The position numbers and the translations under genes are program-made. The notes under the pieces were generated by a model. That model had not been told where the DNA came from, ran no database searches, and saw only the letters and a program-made list of their open reading frames with translations. A stretch of DNA of 64,000 nucleotides from Candidatus Eiseniibacteriota bacterium (GTDB lineage Bacteria; Eisenbacteria; RBG-16-71-46; JABDJR01): positions 96,001 to 160,000 of the forward strand of contig CAWANH010000028.1 of assembly GCA_963783375.1 (NCBI GenBank), read 5' to 3'. Positions 22,488 through 31,545 of the stretch are shown here, piece after piece. Within the stretch, counting starts at the first letter, position 1; the number at the start of each line of letters is the position of its first letter.

Positions 22488-23025
22488 TCAGCTCACTCTT
22501 GATGGGGCCCGTCATGCCGGTGACGGTCCACCCGTCCCCACGTCTCTCGAGAACGTACGTGCCGCCGAATCCGTTCAAGTCCATGAGGTGATGATTGAAC
22601 GGGACGTTGACCTTGCCGGATGCGACTCTTCTCACCTCTCCCACGACCACGGTGGAACCGCCGCCCTCCACGTTTCCTCCGAACCCCCGCTTCACGTCGA
22701 GGAAGTCTTCGATCCACCGGATGTCCAGGCCCCGGTGCGACAGCCGGCGGGAAATTTCGCGCTGAGCCTCCGGGCTGATCATCCGGGTCGGGGGCAGGGG
22801 AACGAGATCGTCCTCGACGTGGTCTTTCGTCCACTTCACCACGTAGACAATCTGTTCTCGCGGGGCGTCGGGGGAACCCGTGCAGGCGGCCAGAATGACG
22901 GCGGAGCAGATTTCGACGTCATCCTTGTCCTGAGCAGTCAGGTGGGACCTGCCGCACGCGAACGAGCAACACCACAGCGCCAGAAACAAGCAGGCTCGTC
23001 GAGAAACGCGACCTTGTTTCGTCAT
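22488..23025 (-). CDS. Hypothetical lipoprotein; stop codon apparently out of frame by 1 nt
   Basis: Signal plus SFAC lipobox; GGTYVLERRGDGWTVTG near the C-terminus; as assembled it reads on antisense through the M28 gene, while a TGA at 22488-22490 lies in a shifted frame. Confidence 0.55.
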
Positions 23026-23148
23026 GATCGATCCAGCCCGAGCGGTCCAAGCAACGCTGCGTTCCCCGGTGCGCACATCCTTGATCGCACCGGGAATCAA
23101 TGCAATCCAAATCCAAACCGAGCGCCCCGCGCGATCGCCCGCCCCACC

Positions 23149-24435
23149 TCACTCCCGCCGGATGACCACCAGGGTCCGGTCATCGAAGGGGGGCTCGCTG
23201 CCGGCGTGGGCGTCCACCTCGTCCATGATCCGGTTCATGAGGGCCTCGGCGGGAAGCCCCCGCTGGCGATGGAGGAGCGTGGTCAGCCGCTCCAGCCCGT
23301 ACTCGGCCCCGTTTCCGTCCACGCTGTCGGTGATGCCGTCCGAGTAGATCACCAGCACGTCCCCGGATCGGACCTCCACCGAGGCCTCGGGGAAGACGAT
23401 CTCCCGCATCACCCCCAGCACCAGGCCCCCGGTGTCGAGCACGGAAATGCCCCCGTCGGGGGAGAAGATCATCGGGTGCTCGTGACCCGCGTTGGCATAC
23501 CACAGGCGGTGCTCGGCGGTGTCGAGAATCCCGTAGAAGCAGGTCGCGAACTTCTCGGAGTCCGTGCTCTGGAACAGCAGCGTATTGGACCGGTGCAGGC
23601 AGTCCGCGGGCGAAGCCTTCATCAGGGTCTGCCCGCGGATCGAGGCCTGGAGGTTCGCCATGAGGAGCGCGGCGGGCATTCCCTTCCCGGAGACGTCGCC
23701 CAGGGAGATCGCCAGCATGCGCTCGTCGATGGGGATGAAGTCATAGTAGTCCCCGCCCACTCCCAGGGCGGGAACGCTCCGCCCGGCGATGTCGTAGCCG
23801 GGGTAGCTCGGAGACCCCTTGGGAAGGAGGTTGGCCTGGATCTCCAGAGCGAGGCGAAGCTCCTCCTGCATGCGGATCATGGCCTGCTGCTCGTCGATCC
23901 GGCGCTGGTTGAGGAGGAAGTTCTCCAGGGCGATGGCCGCCTGGGAGGCGAGCACGTCGGCCAGCTTCAGGTCCCCGGCGGTGAACAGCGATTCCCCGTC
24001 GTGGCGCCCCACGCAGAGCGCCCCGTACACCGCGCGGTCGGTCTTGATCACCGTGCACAGGAACGATTGGGGCACGCCGTCCCGGGAGAGACCCGGCTCG
24101 TCGCGGAGGGCGTAGTACATGCGGGACTTCCCGGCCTCGATCAGCTCCCCCACCACCGACCCGGTGAGGAGCGCGACCACGTCCTCCCCCACCCGGGTCG
24201 TGACCGGACGGAAGAGTCCTTCCCCGGAGCCGGCCGGGCCCACCCAACCCAGGTCGGCGTCGAAGATCTCCATGGCTTCGCCGAGGATGCGCTCCACGTT
24301 CCGCTGGACGTCCAGGCTGGAGAGGAGCTGGCCGGAGAGCCGGTAGACGAGGTCCAGCTCCTCGTAGCACTCCAGGAGATTCCTGGTCAGGCTCTCGATG
24401 GTCCTGGCGGAGCCCTCCGCCCCGATCTTTTCCAT
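23149..24435 (-). CDS. GAF + SpoIIE/PP2C phosphatase (RsbU-like)
   Basis: GGDYYD, GDVSGKGMPAALLM, NAGH, YSDGITD, DDRTL. Confidence 0.95.
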   Translation of the reverse strand: MEKIGAEGSARTIESLTRNLLECYEELDLVYRLSGQLLSSLDVQRNVERILGEAMEIFDADLGWVGPAGSGEGLFRPVTTRVGEDVVALLTGSVVGELIEAGKSRMYYALRDEPGLSRDGVPQSFLCTVIKTDRAVYGALCVGRHDGESLFTAGDLKLADVLASQAAIALENFLLNQRRIDEQQAMIRMQEELRLALEIQANLLPKGSPSYPGYDIAGRSVPALGVGGDYYDFIPIDERMLAISLGDVSGKGMPAALLMANLQASIRGQTLMKASPADCLHRSNTLLFQSTDSEKFATCFYGILDTAEHRLWYANAGHEHPMIFSPDGGISVLDTGGLVLGVMREIVFPEASVEVRSGDVLVIYSDGITDSVDGNGAEYGLERLTTLLHRQRGLPAEALMNRIMDEVDAHAGSEPPFDDRTLVVIRRE

Positions 24436-24468
24436 GACTACCCCCAACCCAATTGGTTCGCGAGCCGG

Positions 24469-24843
24469 CTAGCCCGACTCCCCAAGGATCTCCTGCAGCT
24501 TGGCCCGCATCTTCCGCGGACTGAACGGCTTGGTCATGAACTCGTCCGCCCCCATGTCCAGGGCGCGCTTCTCGTCCTCCTCCTGGCCGCGGGCCGTGAG
24601 CATGACGATGTAGATGTCCTTGGTCTTCGGATCGTCCTTCAGGCGGCGGCAGACCTCGTGGCCGGAGAGCTTGGGCATCATGATGTCCAGGAAGATCAGG
24701 TCCGGCCTCGTCTCCTGGGCCTTGGCGAGAGCCTCCTCCCCGTCCTCGGCCACGTCCACCTCGAATCCGGCCTTGCGTACGACGTAGGAAACCGACTCCA
24801 CGATGTAGGGTTCGTCGTCGCAGACGAGAACCTTCTTAGACAT
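24469..24843 (-). CDS. Single-domain response regulator (receiver)
   Basis: VLVCDDE, FLDIMMP, MLTA, KPFS. Confidence 0.95.
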   Translation of the reverse strand: MSKKVLVCDDEPYIVESVSYVVRKAGFEVDVAEDGEEALAKAQETRPDLIFLDIMMPKLSGHEVCRRLKDDPKTKDIYIVMLTARGQEEDEKRALDMGADEFMTKPFSPRKMRAKLQEILGESG

Positions 24844-27253
24844 GCTGTTCCTCCTCCCCGGTGCGGGCTCGCTGCCCCTCCTTCGTCGTCTCGCAGGCTT
24901 CGATAGCCGTGCCGTCCCCCACCACCGGCAGGGTGAAGTGGAAGGATGCGCCCTCCCCTACCGGGCTCTCCGCCCAGATCCGCCCGCCGTGATGCTCCAC
25001 GATCTCCCGGCAGATCGCCAGCCCCAGGCCGCTCCCTCCCCGGGCCCGGGTCTCGGATGCGTCCACCTGGGAGAACCGCTCGAAGACCCGTTCCAGGTGG
25101 TCGGGGGGGATGCCGCATCCCTCGTCGCGGACGGTGATCTGAAGCAGGGGTCTGCCGTTGCCCCGTTGCTCCTCCATCCGGCAGCCGAGCCAGACCCGCC
25201 CTCCCGGCTCGCTGAACTTGATCGCGTTCTCCAGAAGGTTGGTGATCACCTCCTGGATCCGGTCGCGGTCCGCGCGCACCTTCCCCCCCGGGCAGGATAT
25301 CTGGCGCTCCAGGCGGACCTCCTTGGCCTTGAACGCGGGGAGGAGGCCGTCCACCGCGGCCTCGGCCACCTCGCGCACCGGAAATTCGGACATCCGCCAG
25401 GCCAGCCGGCCGGATTCCAGCCGCGACAGGCTCAAGAGGTTCTTGATGAGGCGTCCCAGCCGGTCGCTCTCCGAGTTGATGATCCCCAGGAACCGCTTCA
25501 TTTCGGGCGTGACGGGCACGGTGTCCGCCTCGTCGAGCAGAATCTCCGAGAACGCCTTGATCGAGGTGAGCGGGGTGCGGAACTCGTGGGATACGGTGGA
25601 GAGGAAGTTCGACTTCAACCGGTCGAGCTCCTTGAGTTCGCGATTGGCCTCGTTCAGGGCCTGGTTCAACGCCTCCAGCTCCCGCGTGCGCTCCTGAACG
25701 CGGTCCTCGAGGGTCCGGTTCAGGGCCTCCAGCTCCCGGGCCGCCTTCTCCCGGAGCTCGATGTTCTCGCGCAGGGAAGCGGTCATGGCGTTGAAGGTCT
25801 CGCCCAGGGTCTGGATCTCGTCGTGGGTCTTGACCCGGATGGAGTGATAGAGGTTTCCCGCCGCGATCTCGCGGGCCCCCGCGGTGACCACGCCCAGGGA
25901 GCGCGAGATTCGCCCTCCCGCCACCACCAGGAGGGAGCCGGCGACCAACAGCGCCAGGCAGGCCACCAGGAGGTTGATGATCCCCGCCCGCCGGGCCTCG
26001 CTCTCGAATTCGCGGGGGAGCGCGGTGGCGAATACGGTCCACGGAACCGTCCCCAGCCCGATGGCCGACGCCAGCCGGGTCCCGTGCTCCCCCGGGACCT
26101 TGATCCAGGGCGCGGTGGGAGGCTCCGAGCCCTCGCCTCCGGCGAAGGCGTCGACCAGAGGATGGTCGGCGAGCCGGATGTTCCGGCCGATCAACTCGGG
26201 ACGGGAGTGGAACAGGATGTCGCCGTCGGAGCTGTTGACCACCGCCAGTTCCCCGCTGGCCCCGAACCGCTCGGCGGACAGATCCTGGGGAAACAGATAG
26301 TCCAGCTTGAGGTTGGCGACCAGGGTGCCCAGACGCTGATCCTTGTCGTCCACCGAGAAGATCGGCATCACCAGCCGGAGGACCCGGGAGCCCCCGGGGG
26401 TCACCCGGTCGGCGTAGACCAGCACCTCGCCGTGGGAAAGGGCCGCCCCGCGCTTCACCGCCCGGAGGTCGCTGTCGGTGAAGCCCCAACCCAGGGGAAG
26501 CCCGTGCAAGATGACCGCGCGGGGGGTGGTGGGAAAGGGAGCGGATCCCGCCGGCGGCGGCTGGAGGTTCACGTTCACGTCCGCCGCCTCGAGGGCCTTC
26601 TCGATGAGCCGGGAGACCCGGTCGGAGATCTCCATGCCTTTCCGGAACGCCTTCAAGGTGTCGGTCGATTGCTCACGGCGGACTTCATCGCGGAGTCTGC
26701 CGCTCACGTTCCGCCCCAGCGCCTCGAGGGTCTGGGTCAGCTGTCCACCGAGGATGGTCTCGGGCGCGGAGGGCGCGATCACGGTGTCCTGGGCGCTCGT
26801 ATCTACCGTGACGTCGGGAACGCCGGCGAGCGGCGCTGAATCCGTCCCCCCGGATCCTCGAAGGCGGAACACCGGCTCGCCGTCGTCGCCGGCGATCACC
26901 AGATCGCTGTAGTAGTTCTCGTACTCCTCGAACAGCTTGTCGAGATACACGCGAAGGGTGCGGTAGGTGTCGACGCGGCTCTCCCCGCCCGTCCCGTCGC
27001 GCGCCAGGAGGTAGTCCTGAACCGGGCGGTTCTCGACGAGGATGCGATCGTTCACCCGCCGCTGGAGCTTCCGGGAGAGATCCTCCCCCACCGACTGGGC
27101 CAGCCGGTCGGTGCGGTTCCCCACCATGTCCTCCACCGCCTTCAGCGAGTTGAAATAGGCGACAAGGCTCACCAGGGCGATCGGGAGCACTCCCCCCACC
27201 AGGAAGAGGGCGATGAGCTTGGCACGGATGGAAGCCAGGGGAATCAGCGACAT
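24836..27253 (-). CDS. Sensor histidine kinase (periplasmic Cache-like domain, HAMP, HisKA, HATPase)
   Basis: Two TMs; DEIQTLGETFNAM HAMP; SHEFRTPL; NLLENAIKF; DEGCGI; GSGLGL. Confidence 0.95.
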   Translation of the reverse strand: MSLIPLASIRAKLIALFLVGGVLPIALVSLVAYFNSLKAVEDMVGNRTDRLAQSVGEDLSRKLQRRVNDRILVENRPVQDYLLARDGTGGESRVDTYRTLRVYLDKLFEEYENYYSDLVIAGDDGEPVFRLRGSGGTDSAPLAGVPDVTVDTSAQDTVIAPSAPETILGGQLTQTLEALGRNVSGRLRDEVRREQSTDTLKAFRKGMEISDRVSRLIEKALEAADVNVNLQPPPAGSAPFPTTPRAVILHGLPLGWGFTDSDLRAVKRGAALSHGEVLVYADRVTPGGSRVLRLVMPIFSVDDKDQRLGTLVANLKLDYLFPQDLSAERFGASGELAVVNSSDGDILFHSRPELIGRNIRLADHPLVDAFAGGEGSEPPTAPWIKVPGEHGTRLASAIGLGTVPWTVFATALPREFESEARRAGIINLLVACLALLVAGSLLVVAGGRISRSLGVVTAGAREIAAGNLYHSIRVKTHDEIQTLGETFNAMTASLRENIELREKAARELEALNRTLEDRVQERTRELEALNQALNEANRELKELDRLKSNFLSTVSHEFRTPLTSIKAFSEILLDEADTVPVTPEMKRFLGIINSESDRLGRLIKNLLSLSRLESGRLAWRMSEFPVREVAEAAVDGLLPAFKAKEVRLERQISCPGGKVRADRDRIQEVITNLLENAIKFSEPGGRVWLGCRMEEQRGNGRPLLQITVRDEGCGIPPDHLERVFERFSQVDASETRARGGSGLGLAICREIVEHHGGRIWAESPVGEGASFHFTLPVVGDGTAIEACETTKEGQRARTGEEEQHV

Positions 27254-27419
27254 CTCAGAATTCCGTCGTCGGGGGATCCGGCCCTCCGGCGCTCGGATCG
27301 CGACCGGATCCAGTCTTCAACCGGACCTCTAGAATCGCACAAGCGAGACCCCGGCGACAGGCCAAAGACCGCGGCCGGCGGGAGGTGTAGCGAGCCATGC
27401 CGGGCCCCTTTCGGGCCTC

Positions 27420-27488
27420 TCAGGCCAGGAAAAAAACGACGACGAGGACGGCGACGAAGCGCCCGAGCAGGTTCAGGGAGCGGATCAC
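27420..27488 (-). CDS. Putative 22-aa hydrophobic small protein (MIRSLNLLGRFVAVLVVVFFLA)
   Basis: GTG overlaps the TolB-like stop (GTGA coupling); single-TM character; followed by a GGCCC-GAAA-GGGGCC hairpin. Confidence 0.4.
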   Translation of the reverse strand: MIRSLNLLGRFVAVLVVVFFLA

Positions 27489-29350
27489 CGCGCCACCCCC
27501 GCCTTGTCGTCGTTCTGGCTCGCACGCAGGAGTTCCCCGACCCGGAGGAGGTAGACGTCGGAGGTGTGGTCGCCGTCCACGTAGGCCCGGATGCTCCCCG
27601 GGTAGATGACGCCACGATAGCGCTCGCCCTCGGGGGTGAGGTCGAACTTGGCCGGCATCCCACCGTAGAGCAGGTCGTCGGTGCTTCCGATGCGGGTCCG
27701 CTGCGAGCCGTCCACCGCACAGGCCCAGAGGCTCTGGGCGTTCGCGGACCGCTCTCCGATCAACACCTCCCTGCCGTCCTTGGACCAGGCCACGGGAATG
27801 AGGAAGTTGTCTTCCTTCATGAGCACGCGGTCGTCCGCCGGGTTCCCGAAGGAGACCACGTGGATCTGGTATCCGCCTTCCCTGGGGAGGGAGAGATAGG
27901 CGATCCGCTCCCCCTTCGGACCCCAGATGCCGGCCTCGTTCAGGACCCCGCCCCGGGTCACCTGACGCGGGATCCCGCCGGTGGCCGGGATGGCCCAGAT
28001 CTGGGTCTCGCCGCCCTCCGGCTTGATATAGGTGATCCAGCGGCCGTCCGGAGACCAATCCTGGAGGATCTCGGTCCCGGGGTTGGTGGTGACCCGGGAG
28101 ACCGGCCCGCCGCTGCGGGGAACGCGGTAGATGTCCACGTTTCCGGTTCCGTCGTCGGCGGCGAAGGCGATCTGAGCTTGGTCCGGCGACCAGCCCACCC
28201 CGCTGTTGTCGCTCAGGATCAGCCCCTGAAGATCGATCCGGTGAACCTGGGGATCGTCGCTCGGGGACACGCAAAGAGAGAGCGACCTCCCCTGCCCCTT
28301 GGCTCCGGCCTGGCGCAGGAAGAGGACCCACTTCCCGTCCATGGAAGGCATGGCGAACACGTCGCGCGGCTCGCCCTCGGTGATCTGGGTGGTTCCCCCG
28401 GAAACCATGTTCTCGATGAAGACATGCGAAGTCCGGACGTCGCGTGAGAAGGCGAGCAGCTCGCCGTCCGGGGACCACGATGGGTGCGCGTCCTCCTCCG
28501 TCCCCCCGGTGACCTGGGTGGTCCGGCCGGTGGCCGAGTCGAGGATCCACAGGTCGAGGTTCCCCGCCTGGTCCGAGGCGTAGGCCAGGAACCTACCGTC
28601 CGGCGACCACGCCGGGTAGTGGTTGCGGGCCTTGGGAACGGGGAGGGGCTTGTACTCCCGGGCTTTCGGGGACCACACCGAGAACTCGGTGGTCGTGGCT
28701 CCGTACACCGGCATGCTCACCGCGGTGACCTCGCCGGGTTTGGGCCCGAAGCATCCATCGAACTCCCAGGCCGGGGTCTTGGCCAGGACGTCGTATCCGC
28801 TGTCCTGTTCCGCGGGACGAAGCGCCAGGTCCCAGTTGTCCCCGTTGAAGGCGCGGATCAGGAACGTCCGGTCGTCGCGAGTAACGCCCACGTAGTCCCC
28901 GAGGCGCGGCCGGTGAAAGGTGGCGAGTTCCTTCCCGTCCATCCCGATCCGGCGGAGCGTGTTGTCCGACCGGAAGAGCACGAACAGGCTTTGCCCGTCC
29001 GCGGCGAAGGCCAGGGGAAGGATGAACGAGGAATCGGAGTAGACGGCGCGGGGTTCCCCGCCCGCGACGGCCAGGATCTCCAGCACGTAGGGGGAACCGT
29101 CCTCGGCTGCCCGGTGGGAGAAGGCCAGGAATCGCCCGTCGGGGGAGAAGACGGGACTGCCGTTCAGGCCACCTCCCTGAGTCAGGCGGGTCTCCCGGCT
29201 ATCCGCCTCGACGGGACTGCGCTTGGCGCAGCCGGCGGGGGGAATCACCGCTAGCACGACCAGGAGACCCGCCATGACCAGGGAAACCACGTGGGGGATG
29301 CCCGGTGGTCGCCTGGGGAGGCGTCTCGCAACGATACGCTCAGGGCTCAT
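27485..29350 (-). CDS. TolB-like PD40 beta-propeller lipoprotein
   Basis: Lipobox PAGC; repeated P-x-WSPDG-x-LAF/Y units; ATG 29350 after GGAG. Confidence 0.88.
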   Translation of the reverse strand: MSPERIVARRLPRRPPGIPHVVSLVMAGLLVVLAVIPPAGCAKRSPVEADSRETRLTQGGGLNGSPVFSPDGRFLAFSHRAAEDGSPYVLEILAVAGGEPRAVYSDSSFILPLAFAADGQSLFVLFRSDNTLRRIGMDGKELATFHRPRLGDYVGVTRDDRTFLIRAFNGDNWDLALRPAEQDSGYDVLAKTPAWEFDGCFGPKPGEVTAVSMPVYGATTTEFSVWSPKAREYKPLPVPKARNHYPAWSPDGRFLAYASDQAGNLDLWILDSATGRTTQVTGGTEEDAHPSWSPDGELLAFSRDVRTSHVFIENMVSGGTTQITEGEPRDVFAMPSMDGKWVLFLRQAGAKGQGRSLSLCVSPSDDPQVHRIDLQGLILSDNSGVGWSPDQAQIAFAADDGTGNVDIYRVPRSGGPVSRVTTNPGTEILQDWSPDGRWITYIKPEGGETQIWAIPATGGIPRQVTRGGVLNEAGIWGPKGERIAYLSLPREGGYQIHVVSFGNPADDRVLMKEDNFLIPVAWSKDGREVLIGERSANAQSLWACAVDGSQRTRIGSTDDLLYGGMPAKFDLTPEGERYRGVIYPGSIRAYVDGDHTSDVYLLRVGELLRASQNDDKAGVAR

Positions 29351-29401
29351 GTGGTTCCGCTCCGACCTTGGTTCGAGACCACCCGCCGGGGAACCAGCCC
29401 G

Positions 29402-29551
29402 CAAAAAGCAGACCCCCCCGGCCTCGGAGGATACCCCTCAGTCCATTTTCCATTCATCGCACCGAGGCCAGGGAAGGTCAGGGATGCCTTGGGTGTTCCT
29501 CAGATCTGGTCCAGCATCCCGACGCCGAAACGTTGCCATCCCGTCGTCTGG
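29402..29551 (-). ncRNA. Candidate sigma54-dependent structured RNA (sRNA or attenuator leader)
   Basis: Starts at the predicted +1; three abutting hairpins with G-U pairs valid only on this strand, a GCAA tetraloop, six GGA motifs and a U-tract. Confidence 0.6.
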
Positions 29552-29561
29552 CCTACCTATG

Positions 29562-29577
29562 AGCAATCGCCGTGCCA
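29562..29577 (-). promoter_or_regulatory. Sigma54 -24/-12 promoter
   Basis: TGGCACGGCGATTGCT is an exact TGGCAC-N5-TTGCW match, located downstream of a bEBP gene. Confidence 0.88.
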
Positions 29578-29664
29578 TCTGGCCCAGCCCCTGACAAGCT
29601 CTTGTGGCTGTTAGAGATAGCTCGAAAGCCAACGGGCCCGCGGAAGATCCGGCGCGAATCACTA

Positions 29665-29682
29665 CGACACGATTCATGACAC
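29665..29682. promoter_or_regulatory. Putative enhancer (UAS) of the sigma54 promoter
   Basis: CGACAC-gattca-TGACAC at about -114 to -131; a near-copy lies at 31418-31435. Confidence 0.5.
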
Positions 29683-29754
29683 CGTTTCCACCACAGCCAT
29701 CTAACATACTGAAAAAGAACAAATTACAGGACAAGGAGGGAGCTCCCGGTGATG

Positions 29755-31395
29755 TCACCTGTCATGACTATCGTCATCATTCGTGTCGCCTCTCATCAAA
29801 CCATGCTTTCGCATCTTGTTGTGGAGGTTGGTCCGCGAGATCTGAAGCGTTCGTGCGGCCCGGGAGACCACGCCGTTCTGCCGGCTCAAGGCGTCGAGGA
29901 TGAGGCGCCTCTCGTAGCGTTGAACCGCTTCGGGAAGCGGGGCGCCGGCGACCGCCCGCTCCGAGGCCTCGGAGCGGCGGGGGGCGGGCCCCATGGGAAG
30001 CTCCTCCACCTCCACCAGGTCCCCCCGCTGCTTGAGCAATAGGCTCCGCTCGACCACGTTCCGGAGTTCGCGCACGTTCCCCGGCCACCCGTAGCCCAGG
30101 AGCACCTCCTCCGCCGCCGGAGAGAACCCGGACACCTTGCGGTTGGTTTCCCGCGCCAGATCCTCCAGGAAGCGCCGGGCCAGGGGGAGGATGTCGTCCC
30201 GCCGCTGGCGAAGGGGAGAGACGGTGAGGGTGATCACGTTGAGACGGTAGAAGAGATCCTCGCGAAACCGCCCCTGGCGGACGGCGAGCTGGGGGTCGGC
30301 GTTGGTGGCGGCCACCACGCGGACGTCCACGCTCCGGTCGCGGTTCTCCCCCACCCGGCGCACCTTCCGCTGCTCGAGCACGGTGAGGAGCTTGACCTGG
30401 GCCTCCGGAGGAAGCTCGGCCACCTCGTCGAGCAGGATGGTGCCGCCGTTCGCCTCCTCGAACAGGCCGTGGCGTTCGCGGTCCGCACCGGTGAACGCGC
30501 CCTTGGCGTGCCCGAAGAGTTCGCTCTCCACCAGACCGGGAGCCACCGCCCCGCAGTTGACCTCCACGAACGCCCCCTCCCGCCGGGCGCTCAGGTTGTG
30601 GAGGATCCGGGCAACCAGGCTCTTTCCCGTTCCGCTCTCACCCAGGAGGAGCACGGTGGCGTCGGTGGCCGCCGCGGCCTCGACCTGCTGGGCGAGCTGC
30701 CTCATCACCGGGCTGGGGCCCCGGATCCAGGAGAGATCCGGGCGACGGCGGGGATCGGCCTCGAGCCGCTTGACCCGCCGCCCGAGGCTCCGCGCCTCGT
30801 CCCGGAGCCGGCGCACCAGGTCCGCGTTCCGGATGAACAGGGCGGCCTGGATGGCCAGGGCGGAGAGGAGCTTCAGGTCCCCGGCGCTGAAGAGGTCCCC
30901 GGCCCCCCGCTTGCCCAGGCAGATCACCCCGAGGACCTCCGTCCCCGCGGCCAGGGGGGCGGCCAGAAACGCGCGCGGGAGCTCCCCGGCGTGGGCCCGG
31001 GCGGCCAGCCGGCCCTTCCGGTCCGCGGGTTGGAGGCGAAGGCTGAGCGCCCGCGGGAGGTCGTCGACGACGTAGGGGAGGGCCCCCTCATCCGCCAGGG
31101 GCTCCAGGAGGGAGCGAGCCAGAAACTCCGAAACCGCCGGCTTGACTCCCTGGGAGGCGGTGGTCTCCAGCCGGCCGAGGGTTCCCCTTCGGGCCATCCA
31201 TCCCCCATCGGCCCGAAAGATCGCCGCGGTCTCCCGCACCAGGTACTCGTCGAGGTCCCCGATCCCCTCCGGCCGGGCCAGGACTGCGGCCAGACTGTGG
31301 ACGAAGTCCAGCTCCTCGAAGGTCCCGAGGAGTTTCTCGGTGATGTTCTCGAGACGGCGTTCCAACTCCGCCGCGTCGCGTGGCGCCAACTCCAC
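29755..31395 (-). CDS. Sigma54-dependent enhancer-binding protein: GAF-AAA+-Fis HTH
   Basis: GESGTGKS, ESELFGHAKGAFTGA, LDEV, FREDLFYRLN, WPGNVREL, AARTLQISRTNL; start at GTG 31395 or TTG 31389. Confidence 0.96.
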   Translation of the reverse strand: MELAPRDAAELERRLENITEKLLGTFEELDFVHSLAAVLARPEGIGDLDEYLVRETAAIFRADGGWMARRGTLGRLETTASQGVKPAVSEFLARSLLEPLADEGALPYVVDDLPRALSLRLQPADRKGRLAARAHAGELPRAFLAAPLAAGTEVLGVICLGKRGAGDLFSAGDLKLLSALAIQAALFIRNADLVRRLRDEARSLGRRVKRLEADPRRRPDLSWIRGPSPVMRQLAQQVEAAAATDATVLLLGESGTGKSLVARILHNLSARREGAFVEVNCGAVAPGLVESELFGHAKGAFTGADRERHGLFEEANGGTILLDEVAELPPEAQVKLLTVLEQRKVRRVGENRDRSVDVRVVAATNADPQLAVRQGRFREDLFYRLNVITLTVSPLRQRRDDILPLARRFLEDLARETNRKVSGFSPAAEEVLLGYGWPGNVRELRNVVERSLLLKQRGDLVEVEELPMGPAPRRSEASERAVAGAPLPEAVQRYERRLILDALSRQNGVVSRAARTLQISRTNLHNKMRKHGLMRGDTNDDDSHDR

Positions 31396-31417: not shown

Positions 31418-31435
31418 TGACACCGATTATGACAC
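31418..31435. promoter_or_regulatory. Putative autoregulatory site of the bEBP
   Basis: TGACAC-cgatta-TGACAC just upstream of the bEBP start. Confidence 0.45.
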
Positions 31436-31545
31436 AGGGGCACGGGTTGTGACAGGTGAAGGAGGCTGAGGGTCGGAAGCCGGGCTCGAGTGGGGGGGTG
31501 CGGCCGGACCGGGGTGGGGCGTGACGATGGGGGACCCCCGGGAGG

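Follow-up and report, generated by a model that had tools for sequence, protein, structure and literature searches.

A helix-GAF module shared by a sigma54 activator and a PP2C phosphatase is a candidate dock for a free receiver in a Candidatus Eiseniibacteriota signalling cassette

A 64,000-nucleotide stretch of DNA from a Candidatus Eiseniibacteriota bacterium (assembly GCA_963783375.1, contig CAWANH010000028.1, positions 96,001 to 160,000), hereafter called the window, carries a signalling cassette of five minus-strand genes between rpe and an unrelated downstream region. In gene order, the cassette codes for a sigma54 activator, a propeller protein, a membrane kinase, a free receiver and a GAF-PP2C protein, to which Pfam assigned the architectures GAF-Sigma54_activat-HTH_8, PD40 propeller, dCache-HAMP-HisKA-HATPase, lone Response_reg and GAF-SpoIIE, respectively. 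As the initial annotation of this DNA had stated, the cassette encodes a kinase and a free receiver, and no receiver domain was found by Pfam in either GAF protein. We propose that the cassette is a two-component system with plug-in outputs, in which the phosphorylated receiver would dock in trans on a helix-GAF module shared by the activator and the PP2C protein. From sequence comparisons, we give this reading a probability of about 0.6.

The N-terminal domains of the activator and the PP2C protein shared 60 identical residues over 201 aligned positions (30%, expectation value E 4e-21), and the motifs quoted for this match in the initial annotation were present in both. Among the 32,232 open frames of the genome, the two domains were each other's best non-self matches, with 53-54 bits for the mutual match vs 27.6 and 21.6 bits for the next-best GAF. 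The claim that they are closer to each other than to other GAF domains was thus borne out. One part of the likeness, the stretch G...F...D..L..LA.QA...N, is generic to GAF domains, while the helix preceding the GAF domain (T-x2-LL-x3-EELD), E53 and K157 are not generic GAF features. In structure predictions, each module starts with a long helix, continues with a GAF core and closes with another long helix at its C-terminal end (predicted local distance difference test scores 88 and 83).

To locate the residues specific to the module, conservation was compared among 53 PP2C modules, 37 activator modules and 50 generic GAF domains. The generic domains were taken from multi-GAF giants, which were the only proteins among the best 150 matches when the module profile was searched against 1.84 billion representatives; a search of the Atlas with the module likewise returned generic GAF clusters. 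Positions common to both module families and without counterpart in the generic domains were T17, L20, L21, E25, D28, E53, G63, W64, A153 and K157, which lie in the helical layer outside the GAF core. Between positions 65 and 125, the part of a GAF domain that forms the ligand pocket, no position was conserved in both families. Such a pattern is more readily explained by a surface for protein contact or dimerisation than by a ligand in common. The initial annotation had left open whether the receiver or a shared ligand is the common input; since the shared residues lie in the helical layer and none in 65-125, the receiver is favoured over the ligand.

The relationship between the modules was examined in trees. 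E26 of the module helix is invariant, and the helix motif occurs in the variants EELD, EEIN and RExN. In a quick tree, for which a subset of 45 rows had been picked to reduce near-copies, the EELD-type modules formed one clade with support of 99 in the Shimodaira-Hasegawa-like approximate likelihood ratio test (SH-aLRT); in a first tree of 63 rows the support of this clade was 80. Activator modules grouped with kinase-fused modules of another phylum (support 81), not with the PP2C modules of the cassettes, and the approximately unbiased (AU) test did not reject activator and PP2C modules as direct sisters (p 0.07). From these groupings and the AU result, the two modules are members of one subfamily, and a local duplication is not demonstrated. 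The input domains, described as paralogous in the initial annotation, are therefore so at the subfamily level, but not demonstrably as direct sisters.

Evidence for the receiver as the partner came from far outside the cassette. A metagenome scan for the module gave 79 loci, in which it was fused to PP2C, activator, HisKA kinase, class III cyclase or HD-GYP domains or to a bare coiled coil; the receiver stays while the output varies. Among the 39 non-activator EELD loci, 34 had at least 500 nucleotides upstream, and a free receiver of one subfamily was present in 34/34. The other five loci end closer than 500 nucleotides, and 12 activator-only loci end before the expected receiver position. 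Kinase-fused modules with the activator-like motif TEKLL.TFEEL were also found near the same receiver subfamily, with no PP2C in the locus. Across the loci, the receiver loop SPRK pairs with the helix EELD, and DPDx pairs with RExN.

Two independent profile searches, one for the module and one for the receiver subfamily, were then run on one set of 401 genomes, all from the phylum to which a genome titled Terriglobus belongs, and their results were compared. The module profile matched 20 genomes and the receiver profile 24, and all 20 were among the 24. The receiver was directly upstream of the module in 16 of the 20; in three more, with kinase-heading modules, it was one gene away, and in the last one the two were on different contigs. 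Two of the four extra receiver genomes also had an adjacent module, which the module profile missed. One of the modules of this phylum carries a second GAF domain and a resistance-nodulation-division (RND) efflux adaptor. As a control, 17 other GAF frames of the source genome were compared, and none had a candidate free receiver within 40 kb (13 frames were measurable, and four were on contigs without any candidate). This co-occurrence suggests that the receiver is the likely common input.

The cassette itself is conserved among relatives. The PP2C module had matches at E 1e-8 or better in 12 of 206 genomes of the class, and the full five-gene order on one contig was found in seven of them, the source genome included, and in three metagenome loci, so that the predicted co-occurrence of the genes held. 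Of the remaining five genomes, one has the activator truncated at the start of the contig, one reaches only as far as the receiver, where the contig ends, one has the cassette split over two contigs, and in two the contig ends soon after the activator. Three of the twelve, all assemblies of 80-95% completeness, gave no match for PP2C. Across cassettes, the receivers were 72-97% identical vs 50-90% for the kinases.

The initial annotation overlooked a sigma54 promoter, enhancer sites and a leader RNA that connect activator and operon. The only TGGCAC-N5-TTGC site of the window, where 0.04 would be expected, lies in the gap behind the activator gene. A sigma54 site of this kind was present in 12/12 genome loci, matching 8-11 of 11 consensus positions, and rpoN is present in the genome. 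A proximal GTCA-N7-TGAC palindrome was also found in 12/12 genome loci, centred at -96 to -98 or -82 to -85 from the promoter, and a second palindrome near -184 in 8/12. When promoter and enhancer were required together in a strict test, 8 of 13 further metagenome loci passed vs 0 of 3,900 shuffles; among the five failing loci, two were too short and three had weaker sites. There are 27 sigma54-like sites in the genome, and only this one has a perfect palindrome upstream. Because the conserved promoter and the palindromic enhancers lie directly behind the activator gene, the propeller-kinase-receiver-PP2C operon is the likely target of the activator, which probably transcribes it itself. In most relatives, AT-rich stretches lie between the enhancers and before the promoter (29580-29750 in the window); they resemble integration host factor sites.

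Downstream of the sigma54 promoter lies the leader RNA. In an alignment of 10 sequences, 18 of 37 base pairs were altered on both sides, a level reached by 0 of 500 shuffles and far above that of slid controls. The element was single-copy in all eight genomes of the source genome's family, was not found in 143 other genomes, and had no match in Rfam. Hairpin 1 often carries a GNRA loop, the second and third loops contain the invariant GAGGAACA and GAGGGG.ATCC, and most copies have a U-rich, terminator-like end. The element could be a small RNA or an attenuator. A CsrA sponge of the CsrB/RsmZ type was rejected: csrA was not found in the source genome (97% complete), only one GGA loop is invariant, and Rfam gave no match.

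If the phosphorylated receiver docks on the module, the cassette would work as follows. The membrane kinase, by its adjacency the probable partner of the free receiver, would phosphorylate it, and the phosphorylated receiver would dock in trans on the modules of the activator and the PP2C protein, probably on their helical layer. The long C-terminal helix would then relay the signal into the AAA+ or the PP2C domain, in the way described for RsbU, and phosphorylation would presumably turn the outputs on, not off. By driving the propeller-kinase-receiver-PP2C operon from the sigma54 promoter and its enhancers, the activator would close a self-amplifying loop, and the induced PP2C would provide a Ser/Thr output and compete for the receiver.

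Several observations weigh against this reading. The co-occurrence counts are not independent, because both profiles were built from paired loci and 12 of the 20 module genomes are of one closely related type; they also come from 8-10 scored candidates per genome. Two of the receiver genomes show no module within 1.5 kb. Twelve metagenome loci of a clade with a longer N-terminus lack a receiver within the locus, with complete flanks in six cases, and a plasmid copy of the module stands alone without a receiver. A search for receiver-module fusions was a weak test on a swamped list: of 1,431 longer receiver matches, the best 120 contained none. The charge swap between receiver loop and helix was discarded as evidence, since it is a single evolutionary event and not significant, and loop motifs like SPRK and DPDx also occur in unrelated receivers. 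For the loop through the promoter, there are 25 other AAA+ activator-like frames in the genome, so that another activator could serve the operon promoter; the tie of the enhancer to the 3' end of the activator gene weighs against this.

GAF domains of the sigma54 activators NorR, NifA and FhlA sense small ligands, and the solved folds nearest to the modules are ordinary GAF domains such as the ligand-binding DosS/DosT. Both GAF domains might thus bind the same small molecule, with the receiver acting elsewhere or controlling the supply of that molecule, and the module clade that has no neighbouring receiver would suit this. We consider it unlikely, however, because the stretch 65-125 holds no residue conserved in both families, the cassette has no conserved synthase or degrading enzyme, and the tracking of the module by the receiver across outputs and phyla would be left unexplained. 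The module helix might instead be a receiver phosphatase or a sink that drains the signal, with output control being secondary. The Spo0E helix motif is SQELD and that of CheC/CheX is ExxN, and the invariant E26 and the motif variants EELD, EEIN and RExN resemble these. Yet E25 is Arg in one whole group, which leaves no fixed ExxN, and the module is always N-terminal to an output through a long helix, which is the layout of an input domain; a sink therefore seems quite improbable.

GAF dimers form through the helical layer, where the residues shared by the two modules lie, and the PP2C gene is downstream of the sigma54 promoter. Both facts would be accounted for if the module were a dimerisation surface: PP2C produced from this promoter would join the activator in mixed dimers and dampen it, and the receiver would be a mere neighbour. 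Most modules, however, stand single beside a receiver with no second module for pairing, and we regard mixed dimers as still less probable than a sink. A phosphorelay, with the receiver handing its phosphate to a His or Asp of the module, is very remote: a conserved His (H33) in the activator helix and D28 in both modules could be acceptors, but 91% of PP2C modules carry Tyr in place of the His, most distant modules have Asn instead of D28, and the lack of an invariant His or Asp acceptor argues against a relay. We retain docking of the receiver as the reading to be preferred.

The individual features of the cassette are listed below.

Features of the signalling cassette, with positions counted from the first letter of the window
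Feature	Position	Strand	Remarks
PP2C protein	23149..24435	(-)	helix-GAF module (residues 3-200), long helix, PP2C (SpoIIE)
Free receiver	24469..24843	(-)	phosphorylation residues complete (D9, D10, D53, T83, K105)
Membrane histidine kinase	24836..27253	(-)	transmembrane (TM)-dCache-TM-HAMP-HisKA-HATPase
Hydrophobic open frame	27420..27488	(-)	22 codons; overlaps the propeller stop
Predicted lipoprotein	27485..29350	(-)	PD40 beta-propeller repeats; not TolB
Leader RNA	29394..29551	(-)	158 nucleotides, downstream of sigma54 promoter; conserved, three hairpins, U-rich tail
Sigma54 -24/-12 promoter	29562..29577	(-)	TGGCAC-N5-TTGCT
Proximal enhancer site	29666..29680		centre -96; one mismatch in this window
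Distal palindromic enhancer	29754..29768		GTCA-N7-TGAC; centre -184 from promoter; overlaps activator stop codon
Sigma54 activator	29755..31389	(-)	helix-GAF module (about residues 6-213), AAA+, Fis-type helix-turn-helix (HTH)
Sigma70-like promoter	31426..31455	(-)	extended -10, ahead of activator; consensus match only

By its motifs the activator is a predicted sigma54 enhancer-binding protein: its AAA+ domain (PF00158, E 5e-68) contains GAFTGA and both Walker motifs (A and B), and it is followed by a C-terminal HTH (PF02954). Its start is likely the TTG at 31389, with a 544-residue record among the evidence. Ahead of the gene, two overlapping 9/12 matches to a sigma70-like promoter were the only ones in 10 kb, where 0.3 would be expected. 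In the PP2C protein (PF07228, E 2.5e-49), a linker helix spans residues 153-200 and the metal-binding Asp motifs are present. Its gene is in the same frame as that of the receiver with a single stop codon between them; a read-through fusion was rejected, and the two are separate genes, because the gap between them differs among relatives. Between the PP2C gene and an opposing M28 peptidase gene, a short minus-strand frame with a signal-peptide-like start was seen at 22490-23030. The propeller protein has a Cys after a hydrophobic stretch, which is also present in relatives, and its gene is doubled in tandem in some relatives (L027:7702-11438, L061, L062). The small hydrophobic frame between propeller and kinase has 22-42 codons in the genus and about 90 in some relatives and is missing in others; it could encode a membrane peptide tuning the kinase.

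Other observations concern the module and the receiver elsewhere. The module is accompanied by a second GAF domain at L171:5236-7584 and in L149 and L184. The L171 protein, fused to the RND adaptor and directly behind a free receiver, is possibly a receiver-controlled secretion component. Genes for a receiver, a kinase and a module-headed second kinase are consecutive in L166-L168, which raises the possibility of a two-tier kinase cascade coupled through the dock. In L091 and L130:6755-7723, nothing but a short coiled coil comes after the module and an enzyme domain is missing; such proteins could be decoys. Elsewhere in the source genome, at G000 C28:484617-485024, lies another free receiver that is related to the first (49% identical) but has no module in its vicinity, which makes it a natural control for specificity.

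In its widest form, our proposal is that the module is a dedicated and widespread dock for one subfamily of free receivers. Two-component signalling would then have three parts, and an enzyme or activator of any kind would become subject to a kinase once it had gained the module, with no need of a receiver of its own; the cassette would use the module twice, for a self-amplifying sigma54 switch and for a parallel Ser/Thr output, with tuning by the leader RNA. We put this wider proposal at about even odds. Free receivers lack an output domain, which makes their targets hard to predict; if the proposal is true, a recognisable dock would make these targets readable from sequence. A set of GAF domains would also be reassigned from ligand sensors to protein docks, and the idea of exchangeable modules from RsbT/RsbU would extend to receivers and sigma54 activators. 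As a test system the cassette is compact: alongside kinase and receiver it offers two readouts, and its promoter and enhancer are defined.

Among known systems, the lone receiver with its intact phosphorylation site corresponds to a single-domain response regulator. The activator resembles NtrC-type and GAF activators in its AAA+ domain with GAFTGA, its HTH, the -24/-12 promoter and palindromic enhancers about 100 bp upstream. It is not of the NtrC type, having no N-terminal receiver domain in its chain, and as NorR, NifA or FhlA it fell below every listed NCBIfam cut-off (NorR 336 of 476, NifA 320 of 529); unlike in these proteins, the GAF core is not conserved as a shared ligand site. The PP2C protein resembles RsbU/RssB-type phosphatases in its sensor domain, long helix and SpoIIE domain with metal-binding Asp motifs, and the SpoIIE/PPM domain stands behind a sensor and helical linker as in RsbU. 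Unlike in that type, there is no linked STAS or anti-sigma gene, and the RssB model scored 67 of 700 bits. Downstream of related PP2C genes, 0 STAS and one RsbW-like match were found in 25 scanned frames of 40 candidates; eight STAS and two strong RsbW-like matches lie elsewhere in the source genome. Because the cassette contains no STAS or anti-sigma gene, the gene neighbourhood offers neither a substrate nor other support for the partner-switch output that the initial annotation inferred. The TolB-like lipoprotein had been proposed as the upstream sensor; its propeller scored 163 of 343 bits with TIGR02800, had no TolB_N match and has the activator and kinase as neighbours, which led us to reject TolB. 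A sensor role is unsupported because of this score below the TolB cut-off and because no propeller was found in six more widely read kinase-receiver-module loci of another phylum.

A close parallel is RsbT-RsbU, in which RsbT acts on the N-terminal domain of RsbU, a module that PPM phosphatases, kinases and GGDEF cyclases have in common (PMC12143880). The likeness is that a free partner binds an N-terminal module and a helical linker transmits the signal; the difference is that a Ser/Thr kinase or hydrolase takes the part of the partner there, and a four-helix bundle or PAS domain that of the module. In the cassette, a receiver is the candidate partner and a helix-GAF domain forms the module, with a sigma54 activator among the outputs; an RsbU four-helix N-domain with an RsbT partner was accordingly rejected, and no stressosome genes were found here. 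Receivers read in trans are known from Caulobacter, where DivL, acting as a sensor, reads whether the single-domain receiver DivK is phosphorylated (PMC5361649); DivL is a pseudokinase, whereas the candidate dock of the cassette is a helix-GAF module on many output types. In Xanthomonas, the receiver-only regulator DrdR binds the sigma54-type activator FleQ in trans and changes its ATPase activity, but DrdR has two receiver domains, binds the REC and AAA+ domains of FleQ and inhibits it, and the available part of the account describes neither a GAF module nor a dock common to a phosphatase (PMC13535131). No published account of the module or the cassette was found in the literature searched, which was mostly outside subscription journals and did not cover supplements. 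The cassette, which is conserved and part of a broader pattern than the initial annotation had described, represents a variant among input modules under the control of a partner; its sigma54 loop probably acts on its own operon, and its leader RNA has no earlier description.

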